Assembly: GCA_963677595.1 (NCBI GenBank)
Contig: OY782041.1
Span: forward strand, 2,080,001 to 2,144,000
Reading direction: 5' to 3'
Length of the DNA: 64,000 bases
DNA from: Spirochaetia bacterium
GTDB lineage: Bacteria > Spirochaetota > Spirochaetia > CAKZLE01
The position numbers were made by a program, and so were the translations under genes. Every line of letters begins with the position of its first letter. Positions within the stretch are counted from its first letter, which is position 1. This document shows, one piece after another, positions 1,939 through 17,838 of this stretch. The notes beneath the pieces were generated by a model. That model saw only the letters and a program-made list of their open reading frames with translations, had not been told where the DNA came from and ran no database searches.

Positions 1939-4758
1939 TCACGGAATAGCCTCCCATGCATCGATGTTCGCAGTCTCATCGGAGGATCCGATGATGACTT
2001 CCGTAGTATCGAGGAGTGTGTCATCAGCGCTGTTGATTCCTGGTGATGTCTTGTCTCCGGAGGATATGCTGCTGCTGGAATCCAGGTCTGCGATCACGCA
2101 GAGATGATAGGTCCCTGCTGCGATATCCTTGATCTCATAGGCTGCAGTATTGCCTGCTGTGGTTACGACCACACTGTACGCAGGGTGTATGTCAGCATTC
2201 ATCGATACCGTTTCAGAGGTGAACAGGCCGACGAATACCGGTGTATCGTCAGGAGCTGTCAGCGAGATCAATCCAGAGAGTGTTTTGCCGGGTTCCGTGA
2301 ATGTATAGGTCCCGGAGACGGGAGCCGATGCATCCCTGTACACACCGGTCCTTGTCCCTCCTGGTTCTGATCCTTCTCCGTAATCCACGATCTCATCGAA
2401 GGCCACTGCAGTCACCGTTGTCGTATCTCCATATGCGATAGGGAACGTACTTCCAGACCACTCTGTCGTTGTCCCAGCATCATCGATCACCGGCAGGCCA
2501 TCCACTAGGGATACCGCAGGCTCAGACCCGTCAAGGGTGTAGTAGACCTTCATATAGGTGGAACCTTCCTGCTCCTGGAAGGATACCTGTAATCCATCAT
2601 CGAACGGGCTGTCAAGGGGAGCCGGCTGCAGTTTCGGGGGATAGGAGTAGATGCTATAGTATGTGAGGTTATTGGCAACGATCTCGAACCGGGTCAGGCT
2701 GAACCGTATATCAGTCTCAAGCCGGTGATTGTCGGTGCCCTGACCATAGAAACCACGTTGGAGCGGGAACATCTCATCAGTATCGCCCCAGTACATATAG
2801 TCCCCGTCAGAACCTTCTGTTTGCGGGATGAATGAGAGGAAACGGCGGTCGAACTCAAGAGCAGTTACTTCAGATACATCGTCAGTACTTCTCCCAAGGC
2901 AGTCCTCACCCATGCGCATCTCCACATCCATGATTAGCTCGATCTGCACTTCTAGGATCTTGTCAGCGAAGTAGTTCGGATCGTCCTCATTCTCCGGGGG
3001 GTCATAGGAATAGGGTGTTGGGCCGTTATCAGGTGCCCAGCGATTACCCAGGACGCAGAGACGGCCTTTTGCCATATCGAACATAGTCGGGGCTACAGGG
3101 ATTTCAATGAATCCACCAGCCTCAATCTTGCCTTGGTACTTACATGGGCTGTCGTCATAGACATTGCTGATGAGTCCGGAGTCATAGGCATATACCCCAA
3201 AGTTGTCGGTCATATTCGGTCTGGAGATGATCAGGTCAGAAGCTAATCTCGATGTCTCATAGATGAATGTGGACATGTCCTCAGCCCCGAGATGGTAGTC
3301 CTCCTCATGGTAGACCATATTCACCTCAGCAGTCCTGCCTGTATTGTCCACCCCGCCTCTGATGTTTGCCGTGTTCGTCGTATCACCAAGGGTGATCGGG
3401 GTGCTGTCGATCGGGTTCCCGTCATCATCCAGGTCGTATACCCCGTACCCTCCAGGGTTGTTTTCCTTCGTTGGTTCACCATCACCTGTATAATTGAAAG
3501 TTGTTCCAGCATAGTCAGCCTCACAGATATAGGGAGTAAGGAATTGGACATTCTCCTGATCCCAGCCGTTCATCATGGTGCCAGGTATCGTCAGGTACAT
3601 GCTGGATGTTTCAGGATTACTTGGGCGTTTATCACCATTAGTCAGTATTTGCCCTCCGCCCCAGCTTCCTTGTTCCGTAGATGCCATGAAGCAAGGGATG
3701 GATACACTGCTGAAGTAATCCGTGAACTCGTATAAGCCATCATAGGGATGCCAGTTCCAATCTGTATTCCCAGAGTTCCCCTCTGCAGGATCATCGGGAG
3801 CCCAGACCTGGGCATAACCATTAGGAGCAACGGTATACGGGGTTACCGACGGGACTGCTGTCCCGTCGGTAATGTCAGTTCCACTGCTGTCCTTGGGACC
3901 ATCGCCATGTTTGAGGTAGATCCATTTCCAGTCGGACTCGTCGTTCTCTTTGACGCCCAGGTCCCCAGCAATGAAAGGGGGAGTATCATACGGCGGGGCA
4001 TCGTTGAAGTACATCCGTACCGAACCGTAATCCTCGAAGTAGGCTTCAAGGTAGACGAGTTCATAGGCTATACCGGTATAGGTGGTGCCTGGTGTCGGCA
4101 TCTGGTCAACCGTCAGGGAGAATGAGTCCTGGGATAGATCGAACCGCTGGACCGTATCATCGGCACTGCCGTCAAAGAGTACGAAAGCCCCTGCTGTCAC
4201 GTCATCGGTATCCATCGGGGTCCTGGTATCATCCACATAGCCGATGAAGGTGACCTGACTGTCCTCGGTAACAGCCGCGTCGGGATAATGGGAAGTGTTG
4301 ATTCCGGGGAACTGGCTCATGACCCCATCCCCGAAGTACTCATCAAGGTCTTCATCAGCCCAGGGCATGCAGTCAAGACCGGTATGGTAATAATCGCTAT
4401 CGCTGGAGATCCCCCTCCCGTAGAAGTTATGATCGGCCATGTCAAGAACCACTTCATCGGGGATCAGTGCGATATAACTGTATGCAGCATAGAGCCCGTC
4501 CGGGGTGATCCTGTGATCTCCAGCATCTATATCGATCCCCCGGGACCGGGACCTGTCTGCCAGCTGAGTCTCATCACTTACCTTAAGAGAAGATCCCTCG
4601 ACGTCCAGGTCTTCAGGATCCGACCAGGAGAAATCAGGGTTATCATTCCCATCATCATACGGGTCATCTGTCCCATTCGGACAGCCTGTATAGAGGAAGA
4701 GTACCAGTACGATACTTATGAGCATGAATACTACGTTTTGGATTGACTTTCTATTCAT
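1939..4758 (-). CDS. Large acidic lipoprotein, function unknown; C-terminal Fn3-associated/chitobiase-C-like module and Ig-like tail
   Basis: 939-aa ORF, signal peptide with lipobox LYTGC, Asp-rich. YYTLDGSEP motif. C-terminal GTYHLCVIADLDSSSSISSGD. Confidence 0.7.
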   Translation of the reverse strand: MNRKSIQNVVFMLISIVLVLFLYTGCPNGTDDPYDDGNDNPDFSWSDPEDLDVEGSSLKVSDETQLADRSRSRGIDIDAGDHRITPDGLYAAYSYIALIPDEVVLDMADHNFYGRGISSDSDYYHTGLDCMPWADEDLDEYFGDGVMSQFPGINTSHYPDAAVTEDSQVTFIGYVDDTRTPMDTDDVTAGAFVLFDGSADDTVQRFDLSQDSFSLTVDQMPTPGTTYTGIAYELVYLEAYFEDYGSVRMYFNDAPPYDTPPFIAGDLGVKENDESDWKWIYLKHGDGPKDSSGTDITDGTAVPSVTPYTVAPNGYAQVWAPDDPAEGNSGNTDWNWHPYDGLYEFTDYFSSVSIPCFMASTEQGSWGGGQILTNGDKRPSNPETSSMYLTIPGTMMNGWDQENVQFLTPYICEADYAGTTFNYTGDGEPTKENNPGGYGVYDLDDDGNPIDSTPITLGDTTNTANIRGGVDNTGRTAEVNMVYHEEDYHLGAEDMSTFIYETSRLASDLIISRPNMTDNFGVYAYDSGLISNVYDDSPCKYQGKIEAGGFIEIPVAPTMFDMAKGRLCVLGNRWAPDNGPTPYSYDPPENEDDPNYFADKILEVQIELIMDVEMRMGEDCLGRSTDDVSEVTALEFDRRFLSFIPQTEGSDGDYMYWGDTDEMFPLQRGFYGQGTDNHRLETDIRFSLTRFEIVANNLTYYSIYSYPPKLQPAPLDSPFDDGLQVSFQEQEGSTYMKVYYTLDGSEPAVSLVDGLPVIDDAGTTTEWSGSTFPIAYGDTTTVTAVAFDEIVDYGEGSEPGGTRTGVYRDASAPVSGTYTFTEPGKTLSGLISLTAPDDTPVFVGLFTSETVSMNADIHPAYSVVVTTAGNTAAYEIKDIAAGTYHLCVIADLDSSSSISSGDKTSPGINSADDTLLDTTEVIIGSSDETANIDAWEAIP

Positions 4759-6158: not shown

Positions 6159-6308
6159 ACTCCATCTCCTCATCCCCCATCCTAGCGGAATGGCAGAGAA
6201 CGTGTCAATGACTGCCATGAGCTGGGAAAATATCTCATTCTGTACATGTCATTAAAAGTGACATATGCTATACTTATCCCATTAGTTTTGAAGTGCAGGC
6301 TGGAATTC

Positions 6309-7241
6309 ATGAAAAAGTTATTAACCGTTAGCCTATTTCTCATAACCTCTCTGGTACTCTACAGTGTGGAGCAGACTCTGATCATCAATGAGGTAGCCTC
6401 GACAGGCCCCTATGAGTTCATAGAGCTCTATAATTCTGGGAACACCCCGCTCGAGCTCGATGAGCGATGGAGCCTTATCGATTCAAAAGAGGGTATAGCC
6501 GATGGGGATAAGCCGATACAGATCCCCGACGGGACGATCCTGGAGGCTGGCGGCTACCTCGTCATAGCCCCGTACAAGGCTCAGCTGCTCTCCAAGGCGG
6601 TCCCGGAGAACATACCCGAGGGAGTCCTTGCGATAGAATCGTTCAAGCTCGGCTCTCTTGATGAGGTGACGCTCCGGTTCAACGGTACGGTGATCGATAC
6701 CGTCTCCTGGGAGACGAGCGTGAACACGATTGGCCGGGACCCGGAGGATCCGGAGAACTTCATATCGGGGATCCTAATTCCGACCCCGGGCGAGAAGAAC
6801 AGGAGGGATCTGGTAAACCAGGGGAAGACCCTGATCATGATCAACGAGGTCTGCTCCAAGGGGATCGATTTCGTCGAGCTCTATAACGGCAGCAGTGCCG
6901 ACTACACCTTCACCGAAGGGGACTGGGAAGTTCATGACAGCAGGAGGGTAGACCGGTTCACCATCCCTGCGGGGACGGTGATCAAGGCAGGGGAATACCT
7001 GGTACTGTATCCAGACCTCCTGCGGCTGCCGCTGTCAGCCCCGAAGGGTTCGCTTGCCTCGACGGAAGGGAGCCGGTTCGGGTTCAGCGAACGTGATACC
7101 GTTTATCTCCGGTATAAGGATGTGATCGCCGACATGACGAGCTGGACGATGCACGTGACGAGCAAGGGGCGATACCCCGACGGTGCGGATACATGGGATG
7201 ATGACCTGGTAATGACTCCGGGAAGGGTAAACAGGGACTGA
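6309..7241 (+). CDS. Secreted protein with two lamin-tail domains
   Basis: Signal peptide MKKLL...; two repeats of INEV..(E/D)F(I/V)ELYN...GR.P....TPG..N. Confidence 0.8.
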   Translation: MKKLLTVSLFLITSLVLYSVEQTLIINEVASTGPYEFIELYNSGNTPLELDERWSLIDSKEGIADGDKPIQIPDGTILEAGGYLVIAPYKAQLLSKAVPENIPEGVLAIESFKLGSLDEVTLRFNGTVIDTVSWETSVNTIGRDPEDPENFISGILIPTPGEKNRRDLVNQGKTLIMINEVCSKGIDFVELYNGSSADYTFTEGDWEVHDSRRVDRFTIPAGTVIKAGEYLVLYPDLLRLPLSAPKGSLASTEGSRFGFSERDTVYLRYKDVIADMTSWTMHVTSKGRYPDGADTWDDDLVMTPGRVNRD

Positions 7242-7243
7242 GT

Positions 7244-9901
7244 ATGCGAAATAAGACTATATTCACCATAGTGCTGACCCTTATCAGTCTCTCATTCCTC
7301 ACCGGCTGTGCCACGATGGAAGAGGAGAAACAGCTGCCAGCCTACACCCCAGAACGGTTCGCCTCGGTGGTCACCAGCCGTACTGCTGCCGTAAAGGAAG
7401 TCGAGCCTCCCACGGTGGTGATCAATGAGGTCTCCCTCTGGAACCACTCGGAGTATGAAGCGCTCGATGGGGAGTTCCCCCACTGGCTGGAACTCAAGAA
7501 CTATTCAGATGTCCCCCAGCAGCTCGAGGGGTGGAAGCTCATCCTCCATGATCAGGACGGGACGGAGTTGAAGTTCCCGGCCTTCCCGGCAGTGGAACTA
7601 AAACCCGGCGGGATCAGGATGATCGTTTTCGTCCCCAAGCTCTCATCGCTGCCGGTCAGGGGAGCCATACGGTTCGGGGCAGACCTCCCTGACACGACTG
7701 CTTCGATCGAGCTGGTCGACGGTACTGGAGTGCAGGTCGACCTCTTCACGATCCTGCCGGGGAAACCCTATGACTGGTATGCACCGATCGAACGGGACTA
7801 CTCCCAGCTGCGTGATGCCCGTCTCCTGAGTGAGGTGCGGATCGGGACGGTCGCTACCCCGGGAATCGAGAACGATAGCGTCATCTCAGGGCCGGGATTC
7901 ACTGCAGACTCAGGCTTCTACCCCGAGATGGTCAATCTGGAGTTCGATACCGAACGGCTTCCCGAGGGGTATCAGATACGGTACACGATCAACGACGGTC
8001 TTGTTTGGGATGATGACATCTACTATGGGAAACGGGACTGGGATTACCCGACCATGGCCAGCGGGATCGAGTATACCGGCCCGGTCACATTGACGGAGAC
8101 ATCAGTAGTGAAGGCAAGGGTCTACTCCCCGACCGGCGCCTGCGGCCCGATGGAGATGAAGAGTTTTTTCGTAGGAGAGGAGACATCGCTGCCGATCGTC
8201 TCATTGACCACCGACCCGGCTGACCTGTGGGATGATGTAGAAGGAATCTATACTGCCGGAACTGATCCGGATGCGCCGAATTATGCAGAGAAGGCCTTCC
8301 GCCAGGTTCATTTCGAATACTTCGGTACTAATACCGCAGCTTCCCCGCTAATTGACGAAGATTATATTTTCAGGATCTATGGTCTCTCCTCACGGGGGTA
8401 TCCTCAGAAATCGATGGCGTTCTATGCGAAGGAGCCGGGGACCACGGACCGGATCCCGAATGAGTTCTTCCACACAGGATCGGCGAAGGATATAGAGTCC
8501 TTCTATTCGATCGTCCTGCGTAACTCGGGCGGTGATAACCCGAGGACGATGTTCCGGGATGCCATGGCAACCGATCTTGCTACCGGGTACGATCTCGAGA
8601 AGCAGGATTACTCACCGATGATCCTCTTCATCAACGGTCAGTACTGGGGGATCTACAACATCCGGGAGAAGATCAACGAGTACTTCATCGAGGACAATAC
8701 CGGGGTAGACCCGAAGGGTATAGACCTCATCGAAGGGTCATACCGTGATTCCATGGAGGTGAAGGAGGGCTCCTTCGATGCCCTTGATGAACTGCTGAAC
8801 CTGACACGGACGGTAGACCCCAAGTTCGCTGTCACCTACAGGATGTATGAGGAGCTCGTCGATATCGATAACTTCATTGATTATGTCATCTTCCAGGTGT
8901 TCATAAACAACGGGGACTGGCCCTGGAGCAACACGAAGATGTGGAGGCCGAGGACAGAGGATGGGAAGTGGCGATTCATCATGTTCGATACTGATGAGAG
9001 CATGGATACCGAGGAGTACAACACCCAGTTCTTCCCTGATGAAGGCTACCCCAAAGGCCGACCTGACTTCGATATGATCTCGTATGTCTACTCAGAGGAG
9101 AACAGCTCGATCGTCAGCAAGCTCTTCAGGCAGCTGATGAGGAATGAGGAGTTCCATGAGAGATTCATCAGCCGCTTCGCCTATTTGCTCGATACGCATC
9201 TCACTGCGGAGATGCTCCAGGGGAAGGTGGATAACCATGTCTCCCTCATCCGGGCAGAGATGCCGCGGCATACAGAACGATGGACATTCACAGATGAGGT
9301 AACCGGTGAAAGTTCATATAAGACCATGGAGATCTGGGAGCATGAGGTCCAGGTGGTCAGGGACTTCTCTGACCAGAGGGGCGGGTATATAACACAGTAC
9401 CTCTCTGATTTTTCCGAACGTGTGCAGCCGTATGAGCAAGTCCTGCTGGCTAATGGTGACTTCGAGGATGAGGATCTCTCGATGTGGAATATGGTCTGGT
9501 CAGAGGATATGGTACACAGCGAGGTCATCGAGGTTGACGGTTCGAGAGTAGGGTACCTGAAGGTCCTGGAGGGCGGTGAGAACCCCTGGGACGCTGTTGC
9601 CTATGTCTATGATGATATCATGGTCGAGGGTGAGGAGCAGCTGAGGCTCTCCTTTGACATGAAGGTCGGCAATAAGCTCAAGGGTGATGAGCTCGTCCGT
9701 GTGATCCTCCTGGAGTCAGACTCCTATGAGACCATCGCAGTGAAGGATTTCTCTCCTACCCAGAAGTGGGATACGTTCCGGATGACCTTCACCTATGAGC
9801 ATCCCACGATCTTCACCGGCCGGCTGCAGTTCCGGATAGGGAACCTGGGGACCGGACAGGAAGTCTTCCTTGATAACATAACGCTTGAAGAAGTGGAGTG
9901 A
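7244..9901 (+). CDS. CotH-family kinase lipoprotein (lamin-tail + Fn3-associated + CotH + C-terminal CBM4/9-like domain)
   Basis: Lipobox LTGC; INEV..WLELKN; RYTINDG. CotH motifs SSRGYPQKS, LRNSGGD, FINGQYWGIYNIREK, NGDWPWSN, KWRFIMFDTD. Tail LANGDFE...VFLDNITL. Confidence 0.88.
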   Translation: MRNKTIFTIVLTLISLSFLTGCATMEEEKQLPAYTPERFASVVTSRTAAVKEVEPPTVVINEVSLWNHSEYEALDGEFPHWLELKNYSDVPQQLEGWKLILHDQDGTELKFPAFPAVELKPGGIRMIVFVPKLSSLPVRGAIRFGADLPDTTASIELVDGTGVQVDLFTILPGKPYDWYAPIERDYSQLRDARLLSEVRIGTVATPGIENDSVISGPGFTADSGFYPEMVNLEFDTERLPEGYQIRYTINDGLVWDDDIYYGKRDWDYPTMASGIEYTGPVTLTETSVVKARVYSPTGACGPMEMKSFFVGEETSLPIVSLTTDPADLWDDVEGIYTAGTDPDAPNYAEKAFRQVHFEYFGTNTAASPLIDEDYIFRIYGLSSRGYPQKSMAFYAKEPGTTDRIPNEFFHTGSAKDIESFYSIVLRNSGGDNPRTMFRDAMATDLATGYDLEKQDYSPMILFINGQYWGIYNIREKINEYFIEDNTGVDPKGIDLIEGSYRDSMEVKEGSFDALDELLNLTRTVDPKFAVTYRMYEELVDIDNFIDYVIFQVFINNGDWPWSNTKMWRPRTEDGKWRFIMFDTDESMDTEEYNTQFFPDEGYPKGRPDFDMISYVYSEENSSIVSKLFRQLMRNEEFHERFISRFAYLLDTHLTAEMLQGKVDNHVSLIRAEMPRHTERWTFTDEVTGESSYKTMEIWEHEVQVVRDFSDQRGGYITQYLSDFSERVQPYEQVLLANGDFEDEDLSMWNMVWSEDMVHSEVIEVDGSRVGYLKVLEGGENPWDAVAYVYDDIMVEGEEQLRLSFDMKVGNKLKGDELVRVILLESDSYETIAVKDFSPTQKWDTFRMTFTYEHPTIFTGRLQFRIGNLGTGQEVFLDNITLEEVE

Positions 9902-10881
9902 ATATGAGCAGAAATCTAGTAAGAGGTATGCTGGCCGCGGCTGTGATCCTGGTCATGCTGGGCTGTGAGACGACCAGGCAGCCAGAAGAAGTAGTGCCGG
10001 CAGAATCTGTGGTCGTGGTCCCTGACCCGATCCCGGCAAGCCCTGAGCTGGTCGTCATCAACGAGGCGGCCTCCATCGGTGATTATGAGTTCATCGAGCT
10101 CTTCAGCCTCTCTGAGGCCCCGCTGGTCTTCTCAGACGGCTGGGTCCTCTCCGATGACGGGAAGGGATACGAGGACGGGGATATCCCCTTCGTCATCCCC
10201 GAGGGGACTGAGATGGCTCCCTACGGCTACCTGCTGATCTGTCCCTTCTCTGCCGAGGATGCCAAGAGTGTGCTCAATGACAAGGACCTGCCCGCGGATG
10301 CCCTCTGTGACATCTCCTTTTCCCTTGGGGACAGCGACTCAGTGACCCTCTACTACGGCACTATGGTCGTAGACTCCCTCTCCTGGACGAGCGATGTAAA
10401 CTCCGCCGGGCGGGTCGAGGACGGGTTCCCGGAACTGAGCACGATGCTCAGGCCTACCCCCGGCAGGGCAAACCGGCCTGAGGGGATCGATGACGATACC
10501 GGCATCCTGATCAACGAGATCTGTTCGAAAGGGGATGACTATGTGGAGCTCATCAACGCCGGCACGAAAGCCTTTACCTTCCAGCCGAACTCCTGGTATC
10601 TCGAGGATGCGAGGAAGAAGCGGGACATCATGATAGCCGGGGGGCTGAGGCTCAAACCGGGGGAAGTGCATCTCATCTACACCGGGCAGGCTGCCGATCC
10701 TCTGAAGCTCGGGAGTGCCGATACCGTCATCCTGCGTCATGGGGATGATATGGTCGACTGGTACGCATGGAGCGAGCATGTGGAGAGTATCGGCCGGGAT
10801 CCCGATGACGTTGGGACCTGGACCGTGATGGCAAAGACCCCTGGTGAGACGAATACGACAGCTGCCACGGAGACTGAGTGA
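9898..10881 (+). CDS. Lipoprotein with two lamin-tail domains (paralog of 6309..7241)
   Basis: Lipobox MLGC; VINEAASIGDYEFIEL and LINEICSKGDDYVEL repeats, each ending TPG..N. Confidence 0.8.
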   Translation: MNMSRNLVRGMLAAAVILVMLGCETTRQPEEVVPAESVVVVPDPIPASPELVVINEAASIGDYEFIELFSLSEAPLVFSDGWVLSDDGKGYEDGDIPFVIPEGTEMAPYGYLLICPFSAEDAKSVLNDKDLPADALCDISFSLGDSDSVTLYYGTMVVDSLSWTSDVNSAGRVEDGFPELSTMLRPTPGRANRPEGIDDDTGILINEICSKGDDYVELINAGTKAFTFQPNSWYLEDARKKRDIMIAGGLRLKPGEVHLIYTGQAADPLKLGSADTVILRHGDDMVDWYAWSEHVESIGRDPDDVGTWTVMAKTPGETNTTAATETE

Positions 10882-11496
10882 TCAATCCCGCCCCTCATAG
10901 TGCTGGACATAGTAGGGATACCTGTTCGCGTCATAGATGACCTCGATCACGGCGGTGTCACGAAGGAAGTTGATGCCGCCGATCTTCACGTCGAGGATCT
11001 CGATGCCCAGGCGTTCTTCCAGGTCCTTGATCAATGCTTCCCTATGCTCCGGCCTGATCAGATCGATCTTCTCATACCGTACGGTAAAATTCCCATGCAT
11101 CCGCTTGAACCAGAAGAGCTCGAGGATGAAGGCGCACAGGAGGATGATGGCATTGACCATGAGGATGATCCAGGTCTGGTAGCCCACTGAGGTGAGGGAG
11201 TTGATCACCGAGAGGGTGATCGACAGGAAGAGATAGGTCATCTCCCGTACCTGTACCGGCAGGGTTCGGTAGCGCATGATGCCGAAGATGGCGAAGAGTC
11301 CCAGTGCCAGGCCGAGCTCCATGTTGATGCTCGAGAGCAGGTAGCAGAGGAAGAAGACCGTCATGCCGACGATGATGTAGGTGAAGACGAACTCCTTCTT
11401 CTTCGACCTCGGGTAGTAGAGGAAGCCTGCGGTGATGATGAGCATGGCGACAGTGATGATGAACCTGATGATCAGGTCTAATATGGCTCCGTTCAT
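10882..11496 (-). CDS. DUF4956 family membrane protein
   Basis: TM helices; signature LGLALGLFAIFGIMRYRT...EMTYLF. Coupled to the VTC gene by ATGA overlap. Confidence 0.88.
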   Translation of the reverse strand: MNGAILDLIIRFIITVAMLIITAGFLYYPRSKKKEFVFTYIIVGMTVFFLCYLLSSINMELGLALGLFAIFGIMRYRTLPVQVREMTYLFLSITLSVINSLTSVGYQTWIILMVNAIILLCAFILELFWFKRMHGNFTVRYEKIDLIRPEHREALIKDLEERLGIEILDVKIGGINFLRDTAVIEVIYDANRYPYYVQHYEGRD

Positions 11497-12281
11497 GATG
11501 ATAACCTCTCTATGAGCATGAGATGCTGCTTGAAATTGTTGTATTTCAGCTTCGGGTCCAGCGAGGCTGAACCGAGGCAGTACTTGCTGAAGGACCCGGC
11601 ATGGATCCCATGGCGTTTAAGTATCTGGCTGAACCCCAGGTGGGGGACCGGCCCCTGGTGCTTGATCTCCGCGATCACGAGACCGGGCACTGAACGGGAG
11701 CTCCTCCCGTCAGCATACTCGAGCATCGTGTCGATGGTGATGCGCTCCTCCCGGTTCGCGTGGACCAGGGTGATACGGGAGAAATCGACCCTGACGGCGA
11801 AAGCGAAGTCGGCAAAGTGGTAGGGGGTACAGCCGGAGACCAGCGCCTCGATCCTGGTAACAGCTTCCGGGTCCTCAAGGCAGGCTGCTATCCCGGTATA
11901 GCCCGTCAGCGGGATGCGCTGCTTGTTCGTCTTCCCCTTGTATTTCTCCTTGACCTCAGCGAAGATGAGGTCGAACCCCGTATAGGAGCGGATCCTGAAC
12001 TTGTACCGGTGTGACTTCCCATTATGGTGGGCCTTGTACAGGGCCTTGTCCGGGGTGTCGTAATACCAGGTCTCATAGGGGAAGAGCTGCCATCCCGCCT
12101 CTGTCGTGACCATATACTCCTCCCGGCAGCTGGAAAGGACTCCCTGCAGTTCTGAGAAGGGGAAGGTGTACTTGGTGTCATACCGGTCGAGCAGCTGGAT
12201 GGAGCTCGTCTCCTTCAGGGAGATGGTCTCGAACCCCTCAAGGAAGCCGGTGATGACTGATCCGGTGATCTCTTCGCTCAT
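11493..12281 (-). CDS. VTC-domain (polyphosphate polymerase-like, triphosphate tunnel fold) protein
   Basis: RYDTKY, YYDTP, RYKFRIRSY, EVKEK, ERITID, IAEIK and FSKYCLG motifs. Confidence 0.88.
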   Translation of the reverse strand: MSEEITGSVITGFLEGFETISLKETSSIQLLDRYDTKYTFPFSELQGVLSSCREEYMVTTEAGWQLFPYETWYYDTPDKALYKAHHNGKSHRYKFRIRSYTGFDLIFAEVKEKYKGKTNKQRIPLTGYTGIAACLEDPEAVTRIEALVSGCTPYHFADFAFAVRVDFSRITLVHANREERITIDTMLEYADGRSSRSVPGLVIAEIKHQGPVPHLGFSQILKRHGIHAGSFSKYCLGSASLDPKLKYNNFKQHLMLIERLSS

Positions 12282-12418
12282 CTATACCTCGCCCCTCTAG
12301 AGTACCATGGGCTGATTTCAAAAATCAAAAGATATATTCCCTGTTCGTGTCGATTTCTTGTGAATCACGCCGGGATAAGAAAAAACTGAAAAAAGTTAAT
12401 CCATATTAATAAAGATTA

Positions 12419-12447
12419 TTGACATGAAAACCAACTAGTGTTAGTCT
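12419..12447 (+). promoter_or_regulatory. sigma70-type promoter of feo operon
   Basis: TTGACA (12419-24), 17-bp spacer, extended -10 TGtTAGTCT (12442-47). Confidence 0.7.
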
Positions 12448-12476
12448 GGTATCACAAAGTTAGAAAGGTATAACTT
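12439..12476. promoter_or_regulatory. Tandem DtxR/MntR-type operator boxes
   Basis: AAGTTA-N8-TAACTT palindrome (12457-76) plus related TGTTAGTCTGGTATCACA (12439-56) over the -10. A DtxR-family gene follows feoB. Confidence 0.65.
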
Positions 12477-12489
12477 CAGGAGATGAGAT

Positions 12490-12780
12490 ATGAGTTTCAG
12501 AGGACGAATGAGAAGAAGGCATGGGATGTGCGGCGCCCATCACCAGGGGCACTGCTGCAGGCTCGAGCATCTGGGTCCGGGTGCCCGGGCGGTGATCGAG
12601 ACGCTCACCTGTCAGGGAGGCTCGAAGCGGAAGCTCCTCTCCCTCGGCATGATCCCCGGGAAAGAGGTGACCTGCCTGCGGGGAGCAGGGGGCAGCGGGC
12701 TCTGTGTACGGGTCGGGACGAGCGAGTTCTTCATCAACAGCGATATGGCAAGACAGATCCAAGTGAGGTATGTATCATGA
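12490..12780 (+). CDS. feoA: FeoA family protein with His/Cys-rich N-terminus
   Basis: KRKLLSLGMIPGKEV FeoA motif; RBS AGGAG. Confidence 0.8.
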   Translation: MSFRGRMRRRHGMCGAHHQGHCCRLEHLGPGARAVIETLTCQGGSKRKLLSLGMIPGKEVTCLRGAGGSGLCVRVGTSEFFINSDMARQIQVRYVS

Positions 12781-13013
12781 TCAGGAATATAGTGGATATG
12801 AACCCGGGGGACATCGCGGTGGTCACGGGATTCCAGGCACGGGGCGGGAGCTACCGGAGGAAACTCCTCTCGATGGGTGTCACGAGAGGTGTGAAGATCG
12901 AGTTCATCAAGGCAGCCCCGCTGGGAGACCCGGTGGAGATCAGGGTGCGAGGCTATTCCCTCAGCCTGCGAAAGGAAGAGGCTGCGGTCCTCGAACTCGG
13001 GGAGGGTGCATGA
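12777..13013 (+). CDS. feoA: FeoA family protein
   Basis: RRKLLSMGVTRG...APLGDPVEIRVRGYSLSLRKEEA; start at ATGA overlap. Confidence 0.92.
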   Translation: MIRNIVDMNPGDIAVVTGFQARGGSYRRKLLSMGVTRGVKIEFIKAAPLGDPVEIRVRGYSLSLRKEEAAVLELGEGA

Positions 13014-15307
13014 TGGGTAAAGATAACCATGGTATTCGCCTGGCCCTGGCTGGGAACCCGAACTGCGGGAAGACCACGATCTTCAACGCCTTCACCGGCA
13101 GCGACCAGCGGGTGGGCAACTGGCCCGGGGTCACGGTCGAGAAGAAGGAGGGGCACTTCTCCTTCGATACGATCTCAGGCTCAGTGATCGACCTGCCCGG
13201 TATCTACTCGCTCAACCCCGATTCCTCCGATGAGGTCGTCTCGAGGAAGTACCTCTGCTCTACCGATTATGACCTGGTGGTCAATGTCGTGGACGCATCG
13301 AACCTCGAGCGCAACCTCTACCTGACGACCCAGCTGCGGGAGATGGACATCCCGGTAGTCGTGGTGCTCAACAAGGGTGACCTGGCACGGAAGAACGGGT
13401 ACACCGTCAATACTGAGGAGCTGGCAAGGGCATTGGATGCCCCGGTGATCCCGATCAGCGCGGTCGTCGAGGAGGACCTGGTATCGCTGGAGAAGGAGCT
13501 CGAGAGGATCCTATCGACCCGTAACCGGCTGGACGGGCGTTTCTCGGTCTCCTATCCTGCGGCAGTCGAGCAGTTCGTGAAGTCTTTCACGGTCCCGGCA
13601 GCTGCCTCTGAGGAGGAGCGGCATATTGGGAAACGGGCACTGGCCCTCTCCCTGCTCGAGCGGGACCCCGTGGTCTCCGCGCTGCTCTCTCACCATGGGT
13701 TAGATATGACCACCCTGGAAGAGGATATCCAAGCCGTGGAGAAGGCCTGCGGCGATGACCTCGATATCATCCTGGCTGAGAGTCGGTATGCACGGATCGC
13801 CGAGCTCCAGGGTGCGATCGTGAACACCGGGACGCAGGAGAAGAAGTTCGACCTGGACAGGGTGATCATGCACCGCTTCTGGGGTGTCCCGATCTTCTTC
13901 GGGGTCATGTACCTGATGTTCGTCATCACCATGACGCTCGGCGGAGCCTTCATCGACTTCTTCGATATCTTCGCCGGCACGATCTTCGTCGACGGGTTCG
14001 GGACCCTGCTCACGTCGGTAGGGTCTCCCGACTGGCTCACGACCTTCCTGGCGGGAGGGATCGGCGGCGGTATCCAGACGATCGCCACCTTCATCCCCCC
14101 GATCTTCTTCATGTTCCTCATGCTCGGCATCCTCGAGGACTCCGGGTACATGGCTCGGGCAGCCTTCGTCATGGACCGCTTCATGCGGTTCGTGGGACTG
14201 CCGGGGAAGGCTTTCATCCCGATGCTCGTCGGCTTCGGCTGTACGGTACCCGCCATCATGGCGACCCGGACGCTCGAGAACAAGCGGGACCGTTTTCTCG
14301 CGATCTTCATGACCCCGTTCATGTCCTGCGGGGCAAGGCTCCCCGTGTACGCGCTCTTCGCTGCGGCATTCTTCGGGGCCAGGGCAGGTTCGGTCGTCTT
14401 CTCGATCTACATGGTCGGGATCATCCTGGCGATCCTTACCGGACTGCTACTGAAGAGTACGCTCTTCAAGGGGGATTTTTCTCCTTTCATCATGGAGCTG
14501 CCTGAGTATAACAGGCCGCACCTGCTGAAATCGGTGAAGTACGGCTGGGACCGGCTGAAGATCTTCATGGTCAGGGCTGGGAAGGTCATCGTCGTCGTAG
14601 TCGTGATCCTCACCGTACTCGGGAGTGTCGGGACCGACGGTTCCTTCGGCAATGAGGACACAGATTCATCCATCCTCTCGGTCATCGGGAAGGGGATCAC
14701 ACCTATCTTCACCCCAATGGGCGTCAGGGAGGAGAATTGGCCTGCGACCGTGGGGCTCTTCACCGGGATCTTCGCGAAGGAGGCAGTGGTCGGGACCTTG
14801 AACACGCTCTATTCAGCAGGCGAGGAGCCGGCGGAGGAAGAGGCCTTCGAGTTCTTCCCCTCGCTCTGGAGCGCCTTCACCGTCCTTGGTGAGAACCTCC
14901 TCGGCGTCTTCTCCGGGGCTGCTGACCCGCTCGGGCTTGGGATCGTGGAGGGCGATGAAGCGAACGTCGCTGCATCAGTTGAGGCAGATGCGGTCGTCTT
15001 CCAGCGGCTGCGGGAGAACTTCACCCCTGTCTCAGGCTATGCCTACATGCTCTTCATCCTGATCTATTTCCCTTGTGTCGCCGTACTTGGGGCGGTCTTC
15101 AGGGAAGCAGGCAGTTTCTACGGGACGCTGCAGGCGATCTACCTCACACTCCTGGCTTGGGTGGTGTCAGTGCTCTTTTATCAGATCGGGGAGGGTCATT
15201 CCCCCGTCTGGATCTCTACGGCGGTGGCGATAGCCCTGGGAATATTCTTGAGCCTGAAGCTTCTCGGCAGGAGGGAGAAGAAGATCCTCGCATCCAGTTA
15301 TCTGTAG
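13010..15307 (+). CDS. feoB: Ferrous iron transporter FeoB
   Basis: GNPNCGKT, VGNWPGVTVEKK, DLPG and NKGD G-domain motifs; membrane domain with GFGCTVPA and FMSCGARLP. Confidence 0.96.
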   Translation: MMGKDNHGIRLALAGNPNCGKTTIFNAFTGSDQRVGNWPGVTVEKKEGHFSFDTISGSVIDLPGIYSLNPDSSDEVVSRKYLCSTDYDLVVNVVDASNLERNLYLTTQLREMDIPVVVVLNKGDLARKNGYTVNTEELARALDAPVIPISAVVEEDLVSLEKELERILSTRNRLDGRFSVSYPAAVEQFVKSFTVPAAASEEERHIGKRALALSLLERDPVVSALLSHHGLDMTTLEEDIQAVEKACGDDLDIILAESRYARIAELQGAIVNTGTQEKKFDLDRVIMHRFWGVPIFFGVMYLMFVITMTLGGAFIDFFDIFAGTIFVDGFGTLLTSVGSPDWLTTFLAGGIGGGIQTIATFIPPIFFMFLMLGILEDSGYMARAAFVMDRFMRFVGLPGKAFIPMLVGFGCTVPAIMATRTLENKRDRFLAIFMTPFMSCGARLPVYALFAAAFFGARAGSVVFSIYMVGIILAILTGLLLKSTLFKGDFSPFIMELPEYNRPHLLKSVKYGWDRLKIFMVRAGKVIVVVVVILTVLGSVGTDGSFGNEDTDSSILSVIGKGITPIFTPMGVREENWPATVGLFTGIFAKEAVVGTLNTLYSAGEEPAEEEAFEFFPSLWSAFTVLGENLLGVFSGAADPLGLGIVEGDEANVAASVEADAVVFQRLRENFTPVSGYAYMLFILIYFPCVAVLGAVFREAGSFYGTLQAIYLTLLAWVVSVLFYQIGEGHSPVWISTAVAIALGIFLSLKLLGRREKKILASSYL

Positions 15308-15338
15308 GAAAAAAGAATAGTATCGTATATGTGTATCT

Positions 15339-15370
15339 GGCCTGGCAGGTAGAGCCGTACCTGCCAGGCC
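15339..15370 (+). terminator. Stem-loop after feoB
   Basis: 13-bp perfect stem GGCCTGGCAGGTA/TACCTGCCAGGCC; short T tail. Confidence 0.6.
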
Positions 15371-15419
15371 GTTTCGGTTATGGATAGAGATCCGATTCTA
15401 TGCTACAGTATGGACAGGT

Positions 15420-16106
15420 ATGACAGTATTGGAATTAGCCCGGCGGTACCCGACGGCGGCAGAGTACATCTCCCAGATCTATCTCATTATAAGAGACTAC
15501 AGCTACTGCAGCAACAGGAGGCTGGCTGAGTTCATCGGGGTCTCTCCCTCGGCAGTGACCCAATCCGCCTCCCGGCTGAAGAAGCTCGGTCTCACCGACC
15601 AGGACAAGTACGGGATGATCAGCCTGACTGAAGAGGGAACTACCCTTGCGGAGCAGATCCTGAAGCGGCATTACCTCCTCGAGTACCTGATGGTCAGGGA
15701 ACTCGGTTTCCCCTGGGACCTGGCAGACAAGGAGGCTGAACACCTCCAGGACAAGATATCATCGGCGTTCCTCGACCACCTCTGCAGCAGGCTCGGGAAT
15801 CCCGACCGATGTCCTCATGGGAATCCCTTCCCGGGGAACCCCCAAAGCAGTGCCATCCTCTCCGCGAAAGGACTCGACCAGTTCAATGCCGGGGACAGGA
15901 TCCGGGTCGTTCGGATCACCGAGGAAGGTGAACGGATCGAAGGCCTGCTCCACCACTGTTATGTGAACCAGGTCATGCCTGACAGCCTCTATACCATAGG
16001 GGATAGGACGAAGACTGAGGTCATCCTGCTCGGGAACGACGATACCACGGTTACCCTGCCCCTGGAATTCATCAGGTTCATAAAGGTCGAGCCGGTACAG
16101 CTATAA
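15420..16106 (+). CDS. DtxR/IdeR/MntR family metal-dependent repressor
   Basis: EY..., GVSPSAVT HTH, RHYLLE, EAEHLQD, PDRCPHGNPFP; FeoA-like C-terminal domain. Confidence 0.9.
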   Translation: MTVLELARRYPTAAEYISQIYLIIRDYSYCSNRRLAEFIGVSPSAVTQSASRLKKLGLTDQDKYGMISLTEEGTTLAEQILKRHYLLEYLMVRELGFPWDLADKEAEHLQDKISSAFLDHLCSRLGNPDRCPHGNPFPGNPQSSAILSAKGLDQFNAGDRIRVVRITEEGERIEGLLHHCYVNQVMPDSLYTIGDRTKTEVILLGNDDTTVTLPLEFIRFIKVEPVQL

Positions 16107-16245
16107 CTGAAAACTGACAGAAGTACCCTATCTCCCAACGATGGAATATGCTACGGTTAGATATAGACAGGTTGTTACATATTGGGAGCCTGTTTGTTAG
16201 TAGTAGTGTATACCTGTGAATCGACAAAGGGACTGGGAGAGGGAC

Positions 16246-17838
16246 ATGAGAAGAATCTTAATGGTAGCATTTTTGTGTGTTACGGCTATATTTTTATTAA
16301 GCCTATCATCATGCGATCTTTTATTTGGCAGCAAACTTACCCCTGAACCGGAGAAGGAATGGACGATCATGGTCTGGATGGATGGGGATAACAGTCTTGC
16401 TTCTGAAGCAGTTTATGACTTCCATGAGATGGAGTACGGGCTGATGCTGGCACAGCAGACTGATCCGGATATCTTGGATGACCTTAGTGTGATCGTCCAG
16501 TTCGACCATCTAACCAATGATAAGGATTACGAAGGGATCTATAAGGTCCTGCCTTCATCCACTTCTGCAAGTTCGACTAGCAGTGCCTTGCCCCTGAACA
16601 ATAAGAGAATAGCATTCTCAGCAGACCCGAATATGGGATCTGCAGAAGAACTGGCGAACTTCATCGATACGGTGAAGTACTATTTTCCCGCAAAGAAGTA
16701 CGCCCTCATCCTCTGGAACCATGGTGGGGGAGTCAGATCGATCAAGGAAGACAATGCACCTGCACGGGCCATCTGCTGGGATGACGGTAATGATGAAGAT
16801 GCATTGTATATCGGGGAGATCAAGGATAATCTGACATCAGATCATAGTGTCGACTTCCTCGGTATGGATGCCTGCCTGATGGGCTTCCTGGAAGTAGCCT
16901 ATGAGTTCAGGCCTGGTACCAATGATTTCGGTGCTGATGCGATCTCCTTCTCTCCGGCAACGGAGCAGGGCGACGGCTGGGAGTATCACAGAATTCTTAA
17001 CAGGTTAGGGGGGGCAGGTAATCAGGAAAATCTGACGGATTATGATGATGGGCATCCGGGTGTCGTTGATGACTGTGTGAATATCGAGACCCTCACTGCT
17101 AACCAGTTTGCCGGGATCGTGGCAAAAGAGTACAAGGATGCGTTCTCTAATGACAGCTGGGAGACACAGACGGCGTTGGACTTGACACAGATCGCGGCAG
17201 TGAAGAGTGCGGTTGACAGTTTTGCTGCTGAGTTGGTTCCTTATAAAACAGAAGTTGAAGATATCAGGGGGTATGTTTCAGATCACTCAATGAATCTGAT
17301 GGCATACTTTAATGAGAGTGATTCCTATTCCTCAAGTATTGATTCGGATGCCAACGAATGGCTGGATTACGCAGGTTTCGATCTCTATGAGTTGGCAGAG
17401 CAGGTTGGATTGGCTGATTTGGATTCAAACGTCAATTCAGCAGCATCCGCTCTGAAGACAGCTGTTGATGATGCGATCATCTATTCCTGGGCTGAGTCTA
17501 GCTATACTGGCTATGGTACAGGGGTCGAATCCGGTAAGAACGGATTGGCGATCTTCTTCCCTGACGGGAATGCGACTTATCAAACAACAGCTAATACCTA
17601 CTGGTATTACCAGGATTGGTATAACGGTGTCGATCATGATGCCTATGTCGATTGGTGGCAGAATGATCTTTTAGCGTCTGGAGAGCCTCAATATGGTGCC
17701 CTCGATTTCTGTACCAGTGATGGAGATGGGACGGTAGAATCCTGGTTCGAGCTGCTACAGTACTGGTATAATCCAAGTACAACACCGGTAGTTGAGAATA
17801 CTACATTTAATGATTACAATCCCAGTTTTTTGGAATAA
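16246..17838 (+). CDS. Clostripain-like cysteine peptidase (C11) lipoprotein
   Basis: Lipobox LSSC; WTIMVWMDGDN; catalytic WNHGGG (His) and DACLMG (Cys). Confidence 0.9.
   Translation: MRRILMVAFLCVTAIFLLSLSSCDLLFGSKLTPEPEKEWTIMVWMDGDNSLASEAVYDFHEMEYGLMLAQQTDPDILDDLSVIVQFDHLTNDKDYEGIYKVLPSSTSASSTSSALPLNNKRIAFSADPNMGSAEELANFIDTVKYYFPAKKYALILWNHGGGVRSIKEDNAPARAICWDDGNDEDALYIGEIKDNLTSDHSVDFLGMDACLMGFLEVAYEFRPGTNDFGADAISFSPATEQGDGWEYHRILNRLGGAGNQENLTDYDDGHPGVVDDCVNIETLTANQFAGIVAKEYKDAFSNDSWETQTALDLTQIAAVKSAVDSFAAELVPYKTEVEDIRGYVSDHSMNLMAYFNESDSYSSSIDSDANEWLDYAGFDLYELAEQVGLADLDSNVNSAASALKTAVDDAIIYSWAESSYTGYGTGVESGKNGLAIFFPDGNATYQTTANTYWYYQDWYNGVDHDAYVDWWQNDLLASGEPQYGALDFCTSDGDGTVESWFELLQYWYNPSTTPVVENTTFNDYNPSFLE

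Follow-up and report, generated by a model that had tools for sequence, protein, structure and literature searches.

The window analysed here is a stretch of 64,000 nucleotides from the genome of a Spirochaetia bacterium (assembly GCA_963677595.1, contig OY782041.1, positions 2,080,001 to 2,144,000), and it contains a block of five genes arranged as two operons that face each other tail-to-tail. The three genes on the forward strand encode predicted exported proteins. Gene 1 (6309..7241, 310 amino acids (aa)) carries two LTD domains (Pfam E 4.6e-25) behind a hydrophobic N-terminus without a lipobox cysteine; its start is taken as the ATG at 6309, the open reading frame (ORF) program having placed it at 6246. 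Gene 2 (7244..9901, 885 aa) encodes a predicted lipoprotein in which an LTD domain, a possible Fn3_assoc stretch, a CotH kinase domain and a CBM_4_9 domain follow one another, as judged from Pfam, a structure model and conservation. Gene 3 (9898..10881, 327 aa) encodes a predicted lipoprotein with two LTD domains (E 2.6e-15). The reverse strand carries the genes of a DUF4956 membrane protein (10882..11496, 204 aa; E 1.2e-49) and of a stand-alone VTC (Vtc4-like tunnel) domain protein that is predicted to be cytoplasmic (11493..12281, 262 aa; E 8.2e-24). Both operons are tightly packed: a gap of 2 nucleotides (nt) separates genes 1 and 2, genes 2 and 3 overlap by 4 nt, and the VTC gene overlaps the start of the DUF4956 gene by 4 nt. 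An earlier description from the sequence alone, referred to below as the original prediction, had three exported-type genes meeting a VTC and a DUF4956 gene in this manner; all five ORFs are found in place and their Pfam families agree. None of the five genes has an NCBIfam equivalog, and the nearest named relatives are from Spirochaetia. The block is a real and conserved spirochaete variant of a gene trio (VTC, DUF4956 and CotH) that is already in print.

The VTC protein resembles yeast Vtc4. A 110-row profile matches the Vtc4 structure 3g3q with an E value of 1.1e-11; a PDB search with the single sequence gave no match. Residues K37, R96, R98, K111, R169, E205, S232 and K233 align to K200, R264, R266, K281, R361, E426, S457 and K458 of Vtc4, and all eight are invariant (110/110 rows). 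The accessible part of the Vtc4 study lists these residues as triphosphate and Mn ligands, with K458 having no counterpart in the inactive Vtc2 and Vtc3 (10.1101/2023.01.27.525886). The first strand reads R33-x-D35-x-K37, as does RQTTK in Vtc4, and not ExExK, the motif of the triphosphate tunnel metalloenzyme (TTM) hydrolases. The same study reports, in the part available, that a Y359F change reduces polyphosphate (polyP) in yeast, and Y359, the ninth residue of the set, is F167 here (F in 91 rows, Y in 18 and V in 1). Instead of polymerising chains, the VTC-like protein could conceivably be a triphosphatase, or make a short product or a nucleotide messenger as the output of an outside-in signal gated by DUF4956. 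The phenylalanine fits this idea, as do the acidic residue at motif position 3, shared with ExExK enzymes (D in 101 and E in 9 of 110 rows, Thr in Vtc4), and the description of TTM enzymes as mostly hydrolases in the sections of PMC9582702 used here. The first Glu of ExExK is, however, replaced by Arg in 110/110 rows, as in Vtc4, and the equivalent of K458 is invariant; such a function is judged improbable. On balance a phosphoryl polymerase of the Vtc4 kind is likelier than a triphosphatase, though the protein is not identical to Vtc4, and the Vtc4 type originally assigned to it agrees with eight of nine catalytic residues and with Arg instead of Glu at the first motif position. It shares with the yeast VTC complex (Vtc4/Vtc3/Vtc1; 3g3q, 8i6v) the tunnel domain, these residues and a membrane-protein neighbour, and differs from it in having Phe for Y359 and in lacking both an SPX domain and a fused transmembrane domain (the 262-aa ORF matches Pfam VTC only).

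The fold and the catalytic residues support the prediction that the CotH protein is an intact kinase. CotH (E 1.8e-47) and CBM_4_9 (E 3.5e-10) are over the Pfam cut-off, whereas LTD (E 4e-6) and Fn3_assoc (E 0.0019) fall below it, and the domain set first read for gene 2 holds firmly for the former two. The model of the kinase domain (residues 300-735; predicted local distance difference test score (pLDDT) 94.7) superimposes on Bacillus CotH (5jd9) with Z 35.1 and a root mean square deviation of 2.4 over 336 residues at 16% identity; Foldseek returns 5jda with E 1.2e-16, and the next-best family reaches Z 13.1 as compared with 35.1 for B. cereus CotH. D558 is conserved in 74/75 rows, N563 and D582 in 75/75, and K389 in 74-75 of 75. 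The first three were assigned to D166, N171 and D184 of PKA by motif spacing against the published account of CotH (PMC12189002, in part), not by residue-level superposition. PDB searches with the protein and with its profile gave no informative relative; matches to DZANK1 and to a hexosaminidase span only the Fn3_assoc stretch. The kinase originally proposed is thus borne out in its fold and active site. Unlike the Bacillus spore-coat kinase (5jd9, 5jda), it carries LTD and CBM domains, is predicted to be a lipoprotein and comes from a genome without detected Spo0A_C. The absence of a Spo0A_C match from this 95.4%-complete genome is in line with a non-sporulating host, as had been supposed. 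The genome has one CotH gene only. Additional CotH genes lie away from VTC in the relatives G001 and G005 (L103, L104, L105 and L106 between them), three being window-type paralogues, and the shorter CotH of L105 is paired with a single-LTD gene. One CotH relative (P0299) is fused to PF05787, which we take to be the PhoX phosphatase family; P0299 would then be a possible kinase-phosphatase fusion.

The LTD proteins of genes 1 and 3 are paralogues with 36% identity, and a PDB search with the LTD profile gave no informative relative. The export and lipobox assignments come from a hydropathy and lipobox heuristic rather than a dedicated signal-peptide predictor. The lipobox cysteine is kept in 4/4 aligned relatives of gene 3 and in the 3/3 relatives of gene 2 that have an intact N-terminus.

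The original prediction held that VTC, DUF4956 and CotH co-occur in other bacteria, and the outcome of a test set beforehand agrees with it. Among 61 relatives CotH is present in 12/12 genomes with VTC and in 4/49 others. Among 301 genomes of the phylum, drawn at a completeness of at least 90%, the proportions are 15/17 with VTC and 24/284 without, and in 14/17 the two genes lie within about 6 kb. Fisher tests on co-occurrence give very small values but overstate the association, since related genomes are not independent of each other: one genus supplies 8 of the 17 VTC genomes of the phylum. The clade of window-type 2xLTD proteins occurs in 11 of 401 genomes of the class; VTC is present in 9/11 of these as compared with 42/390 others, and the two without it are 55% and 64% complete. 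The sister family f20 (G024, G056, G387 and G406) retains the two operons on separate contigs and among unrelated genes, and the VTC proteins of G024 and G056 share a 9-row clade with that of the window (Shimodaira-Hasegawa-like approximate likelihood ratio support 98 in a quick tree). This co-retention of unlinked operons argues that the link between VTC and CotH is functional and not positional. CotH also adjoins VTC in a number of distinct VTC lineages, with differing gene orders, and all three families are present, as genomic presence rather than adjacency, in B. thetaiotaomicron, C. glutamicum and M. acetivorans.

By combining the gene anatomy, the conserved catalytic residues, the folds and the co-occurrence, all of which are observed, it is possible to propose, with every functional step being inferred, that the two facing operons form one envelope phosphate module. 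The probability of the whole chain of steps is put at about 35%. The cytoplasmic VTC protein would probably polymerise the gamma-phosphates of ATP into polyP at the inner face of the inner membrane. PolyP would then pass the inner membrane through, or under the control of, the MgtC-like DUF4956 protein, and the odds that it is delivered to the envelope are about even. The exported CotH lipoprotein could use polyP, directly or after regeneration of ATP, to phosphorylate a substrate in the envelope, which the CBM domain of CotH and the LTD proteins would likely hold; that polyP is the direct donor of CotH is doubtful. A rather unlikely extension is that a stand-alone Vtc4 homologue and an MgtC-family protein make up a PPK-independent, VTC-like machine that makes polyP and threads it out of the cytoplasm, with exported CotH proteins being polyP-fuelled kinases. 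The spirochaete block would then be a periplasmic, lipoprotein-anchored version with the LTD proteins as scaffold or substrate. If true, this would answer where kinases outside the bacterial cytoplasm obtain their phosphoryl energy and how bacteria without PPK1 make or export polyP, and it would give an MgtC-family protein its first transport role. As the trio is widespread, these questions do not depend on the present locus, which adds two natural controls: a second VTC-DUF4956 locus without CotH in the same genome and the relatives that keep both operons unlinked.

A number of observations weigh against this chain of steps, and the first of them concern DUF4956. Its model (pLDDT 78.7) has five predicted helices followed by a C-terminal ACT-like alpha/beta domain. 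In HHalign the window's DUF4956 class aligns to class-2 DUF4956 (99.7%), and class-2 DUF4956 aligns to MgtC over its full length, transmembrane part and ACT domain included (98.7%, E 3e-16, 210 columns; 0.4% for the reversed control and scores of 8-14 for shuffled ones vs 111). By transitive alignment DUF4956 is MgtC/ACT-like, with a homologous transmembrane plus ACT architecture. It differs from the MgtC/SapB family in that the direct comparison of the window's class with MgtC gives only 1.3%, in that PF02308 does not match the window protein (3/108 rows match weakly, best E 0.019, and there is no match in its own genome), and in its almost constant coupling to a VTC gene. The assignment agrees with that of SIR_1592 of S. 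intermedius as MgtC/ACT, in a preprint where MgtC is a regulator and not a transporter (10.1101/2024.04.20.589940). Most of the conserved basic residues of DUF4956 fall in loops rather than lining a helix. The loop that follows helix 3, which would be cytoplasmic by the positive-inside rule, contains R75 and R77, where 99-100% of 108 rows have a basic residue, and E85, where 100% have an acidic one. A fold search with the model gave no Foldseek match at E <= 0.001, and VIA returned helical bundles only (best Z 10.9, a designed cage); there is no VTC or MgtC chain among the fold matches listed, which excludes nothing. The comparison with an alignment of bacterial DUF202 of only 3 rows stayed under 1%, and a PDB search with the DUF4956 profile gave no informative relative. 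The original prediction had cast DUF4956 as the counterpart of the yeast VTC channel. This part is weakened: the protein is MgtC/ACT-like, and these comparisons detected no resemblance to the transmembrane fold of VTC with its three-helix pore subunits; export of polyP by DUF4956 would rest on analogy with the yeast channel, with no sign of homology.

These properties are in agreement with another explanation, in which VTC makes cytoplasmic polyP under DUF4956, which would be a membrane regulator resembling MgtC with its ACT domain as sensor, and CotH is an ATP-using envelope kinase of the same phosphate or envelope-stress programme that receives no product of VTC. PPK1 was found in none of five relatives with the same VTC, so that VTC may simply be the cytoplasmic polyP source of these PPK1-less relatives. 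The authors of the S. intermedius work favour this location and expect polyP to stay in the cytoplasm (10.1101/2024.04.20.589940). CotH, moreover, retains a likely adenine-stacking aromatic: F/Y581, just before D582, occurs in 71/75 rows and fits, from spacing alone, W245 of B. cereus CotH, which sandwiches adenine together with Y142 (PMC12189002, accessible part). Position 471 is variable, and no equivalent of Y142 could be assigned. The nucleotide pocket therefore probably remains, as far as the alignment can tell. PPK2, which could regenerate ATP, was not found in the genome. The polyP-donor step is favoured neither by the retained pocket nor by the replaceability of CotH described below, but kinases using both ATP and polyP exist, and the pocket does not rule out the use of polyP. 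The regulatory explanation leaves the exported look of the pair's neighbours, the failure of CotH and Cthe_2159 to share any locus (0/43) and the outer-membrane barrels within operons unexplained, and gives no account of the ATP source of an exported kinase; it is considered possible, though not probable. The ppk1 gene of the present genome lies at L247:2625-6955 (G000:C1, about 1.953-1.957 Mb), upstream of a 494-aa gene and of a gene called ParA-like from its translation and not from a domain scan. The idea that PPK1 frees VTC for export was dropped, as PPK1 is found in 0/5 relatives.

The partners of VTC-DUF4956 bear both on the donor step and on export. The set of 43 spirochaete VTC loci, to which four genomes contribute two loci each, was searched with a broader CotH profile, the first profile having missed divergent CotH proteins (e.g. 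at L016). DUF4956 lies within 1.5 kb at 41 of them; CotH is found at 25, Cthe_2159 at 8, both at none and neither at 10, five of which are near a contig end. The constant core is VTC-DUF4956, for which two exported proteins, CotH and Cthe_2159, are alternative partners. Cthe_2159 is a beta-helix protein that binds cellulose and polygalacturonate according to the accessible part of its description (10.1101/401869). A second VTC-DUF4956 pair of the present genome, of a distant VTC lineage (L004:1246-12613; G000:C1, about 1.890-1.902 Mb), has no CotH; it is accompanied by Cthe_2159, a further beta-helix protein, an IS66 element in an Abi_2-like gene, and a divergent response regulator and histidine kinase. 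The best 80 of 585 DUF4956 loci, which are mostly from Bacteroidota and often on short contigs, have VTC adjacent at 73, DUF2490 at 35, CotH at 13 and Cthe_2159 at 2; CotH is thus within 6 kb at 13/80 (12/44 with full flanks). Likewise, VTC is near at 7/80 of the best loci, out of 589, of relatives of the window's CotH (2/22 with full flanks). Against the original prediction, CotH is an exchangeable partner of VTC-DUF4956, with Cthe_2159 in its place at 8/43 spirochaete loci and CotH not adjacent at most Bacteroidota loci.

VTC-DUF4956 would then serve two kinds of exported protein with unrelated folds, and reach them through either one membrane or two. Such a swap of partners would be easier to reconcile with a diffusible polyanion than with a fuel reserved for a kinase, and it leaves the direction of flow unfixed. 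Many CotH relatives carry a tail of the type IX secretion system, as do 5/5 of the Bacteroidota CotH neighbours of the pair that were scanned; these proteins would lie beyond the outer membrane, and only a diffusible product could reach them. Porin_O_P genes stand inside VTC-DUF4956-CotH operons of three other spirochaetes (L113:5975-7081, L212:5166-6164 and L214:4811-5812), and at six loci (L016, L118, L211, L213, L215 and L218) a gene of 400-450 aa without Pfam match directly follows DUF4956. Many VTC-DUF4956 operons hold Porin_O_P, DUF2490, proteins of 320-450 aa without assigned family, or an HlyD-like gene (the HlyD match at L114 is weak). Export from the cytoplasm gains support because the recurring partners of the pair look exported and because outer-membrane conduits recur; the envelope context expected originally is found in other diderms, where outer-membrane barrels or Porin_O_P adjoin the pair. 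In the present genome Porin_O_P was not found.

The same genes could serve a flow in the opposite direction, in which a porin or barrel and DUF4956 import poly- or pyrophosphate from the environment, VTC acts in reverse to recharge nucleotides or to free phosphate, and the role of the exported partners is to trap the polyanion or its carrier. Besides Porin_O_P at three loci, this is suggested by OprO, named a polyphosphate-selective porin in a title cited in PMC4849052 (seen in part), and by the binding of acidic polymers reported for Cthe_2159 in the available portion of 10.1101/401869. An operon of GDPD, ABC transporter (ugp-like in our reading) and GHMP kinase genes also adjoins the second VTC locus (L004:12618-18503) and, in G005, immediately precedes the LTD-CotH operon (L107:52-4918), which is possibly a phosphate-scavenging link or else due to chance. 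An intact kinase, however, has no clear role in uptake, and Vtc4, with the same set of residues, is described as a synthase in the parts at hand of 10.1101/2023.01.27.525886 and PMC9582702. Import is regarded as unlikely.

The envelope module also has to be weighed against the possibility that the two operons are functionally independent and were joined once by rearrangement in one family. In family f1 the convergent layout is inherited with the whole syntenic neighbourhood. On contigs L121, L122, L124 and L125 the LTD-CotH operon occurs with no VTC gene, G001 has three further CotH genes away from VTC, and closely spaced convergent pairs are frequent in this genome. Here the two stop codons meet at 10881/10882 (10879..10884), with 0 nt between the operons, and gaps of -4 to +1 nt recur at this junction in G001, G002, G003 and G005; metagenome contig L123 has the same layout. 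As the antiporter and feo genes on its flanks are inherited alongside, and 63/438 convergent pairs of the genome, as called by a crude gene caller, are equally tight, the junction is ordinary and is weak evidence for a special link. A fortuitous joining does not account for the retention of both operons while unlinked (9/11) or for CotH beside VTC in separate lineages and gene orders, and it is very unlikely. As a whole, the original interpretation is retained in its co-occurrence, Vtc4-type site, intact CotH and barrels beside the pair in other diderms, and is weakened in its VTC-like channel and by the exchangeability of CotH.

The trio has published precedents. Genes for CotH, a poly-phosphate polymerase and DUF4956 are accessory genes of Gram-positive pel loci in the accessible part of 10.1101/768473. 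Deletion of each of SIR_1592-1594 in S. intermedius did not abolish Pel or aggregation and caused subtle changes for SIR_1592 (10.1101/2024.04.20.589940), which counts against the envelope module. The pel accessory trio resembles the present block in its secreted CotH, cytoplasmic VTC, MgtC-assigned membrane protein with ACT and non-sporulating host. The block differs in belonging to a diderm spirochaete, in having two convergent operons rather than one, in two extra 2xLTD proteins, and in a CotH with LTD and CBM_4_9. No pel genes are found among the flanking ORFs scanned, and the block is not contiguous with pelDEADAFG; its neighbours are a cation/proton antiporter gene and feoAB-dtxR-like genes. 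The S. intermedius preprint reports no trio outside pel operons, whereas the genome and locus counts given here contain many cases. The locus NELoc-2 of C. perfringens, as far as the available part of PMC2879425 describes it, likewise holds VTC-domain genes, a membrane protein and CotH together, and differs in a duplicated VTC pair, a putative glycosyl transferase beside it and a spore-forming host. In the parts of PMC13454231 and PMC10434189 that could be accessed, DUF4956 appears only in expression tables. Within the literature covered, with most subscription journals outside reach, no paper was found that tests the enzymes of the trio or proposes export to CotH.

There is no terminator-like site at the junction, and the regional scan yielded no more sites than expected by chance. 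A role of the zero-gap junction as a selected antisense device was considered and dropped, given 63/438 such junctions and terminators no commoner than chance. For the LTD-CotH-LTD operon, a candidate extended -10 promoter lies at 6246..6274 (+); it is a consensus match only, from a scan that gave 3 sites with 3.9 expected by chance, and its core TGCTATA is retained in G001 and G002.

On the VTC side of the block a feoA-feoA-feoB cluster with a DtxR-family repressor (12282-16106) is divergent from VTC. The intergenic region that they share contains TTGACAT and GTTAG-type boxes, which all of the 5/5 genomes aligned have kept; the boxes could be a DtxR operator, and VTC may be co-regulated by Fe or Mn. 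A clostripain-family (C11) protein is encoded further on (16216-17838, +). On the other flank a gene at 1939-4758 (-) encodes an acidic protein of 939 aa that begins like a lipoprotein and has only weak Fn3_assoc and CHB_HEX_C matches. The cation/proton antiporter gene is preceded by a fluoride riboswitch (RF01734) in 4/4 relatives (L012:4514-4579, L013:1593-1658, L014:4921-4985 and L123:5886-5950). Rfam finds no match between 4500 and 16500 of the window, and hence no complete fluoride riboswitch there: the first 11-12 nt of the aptamer are left (6159-6169, -), joined to the antiporter start codon (likely 6158), and about 80 nt are missing. Judging from this remnant, the antiporter of the window is likely no longer fluoride-gated.

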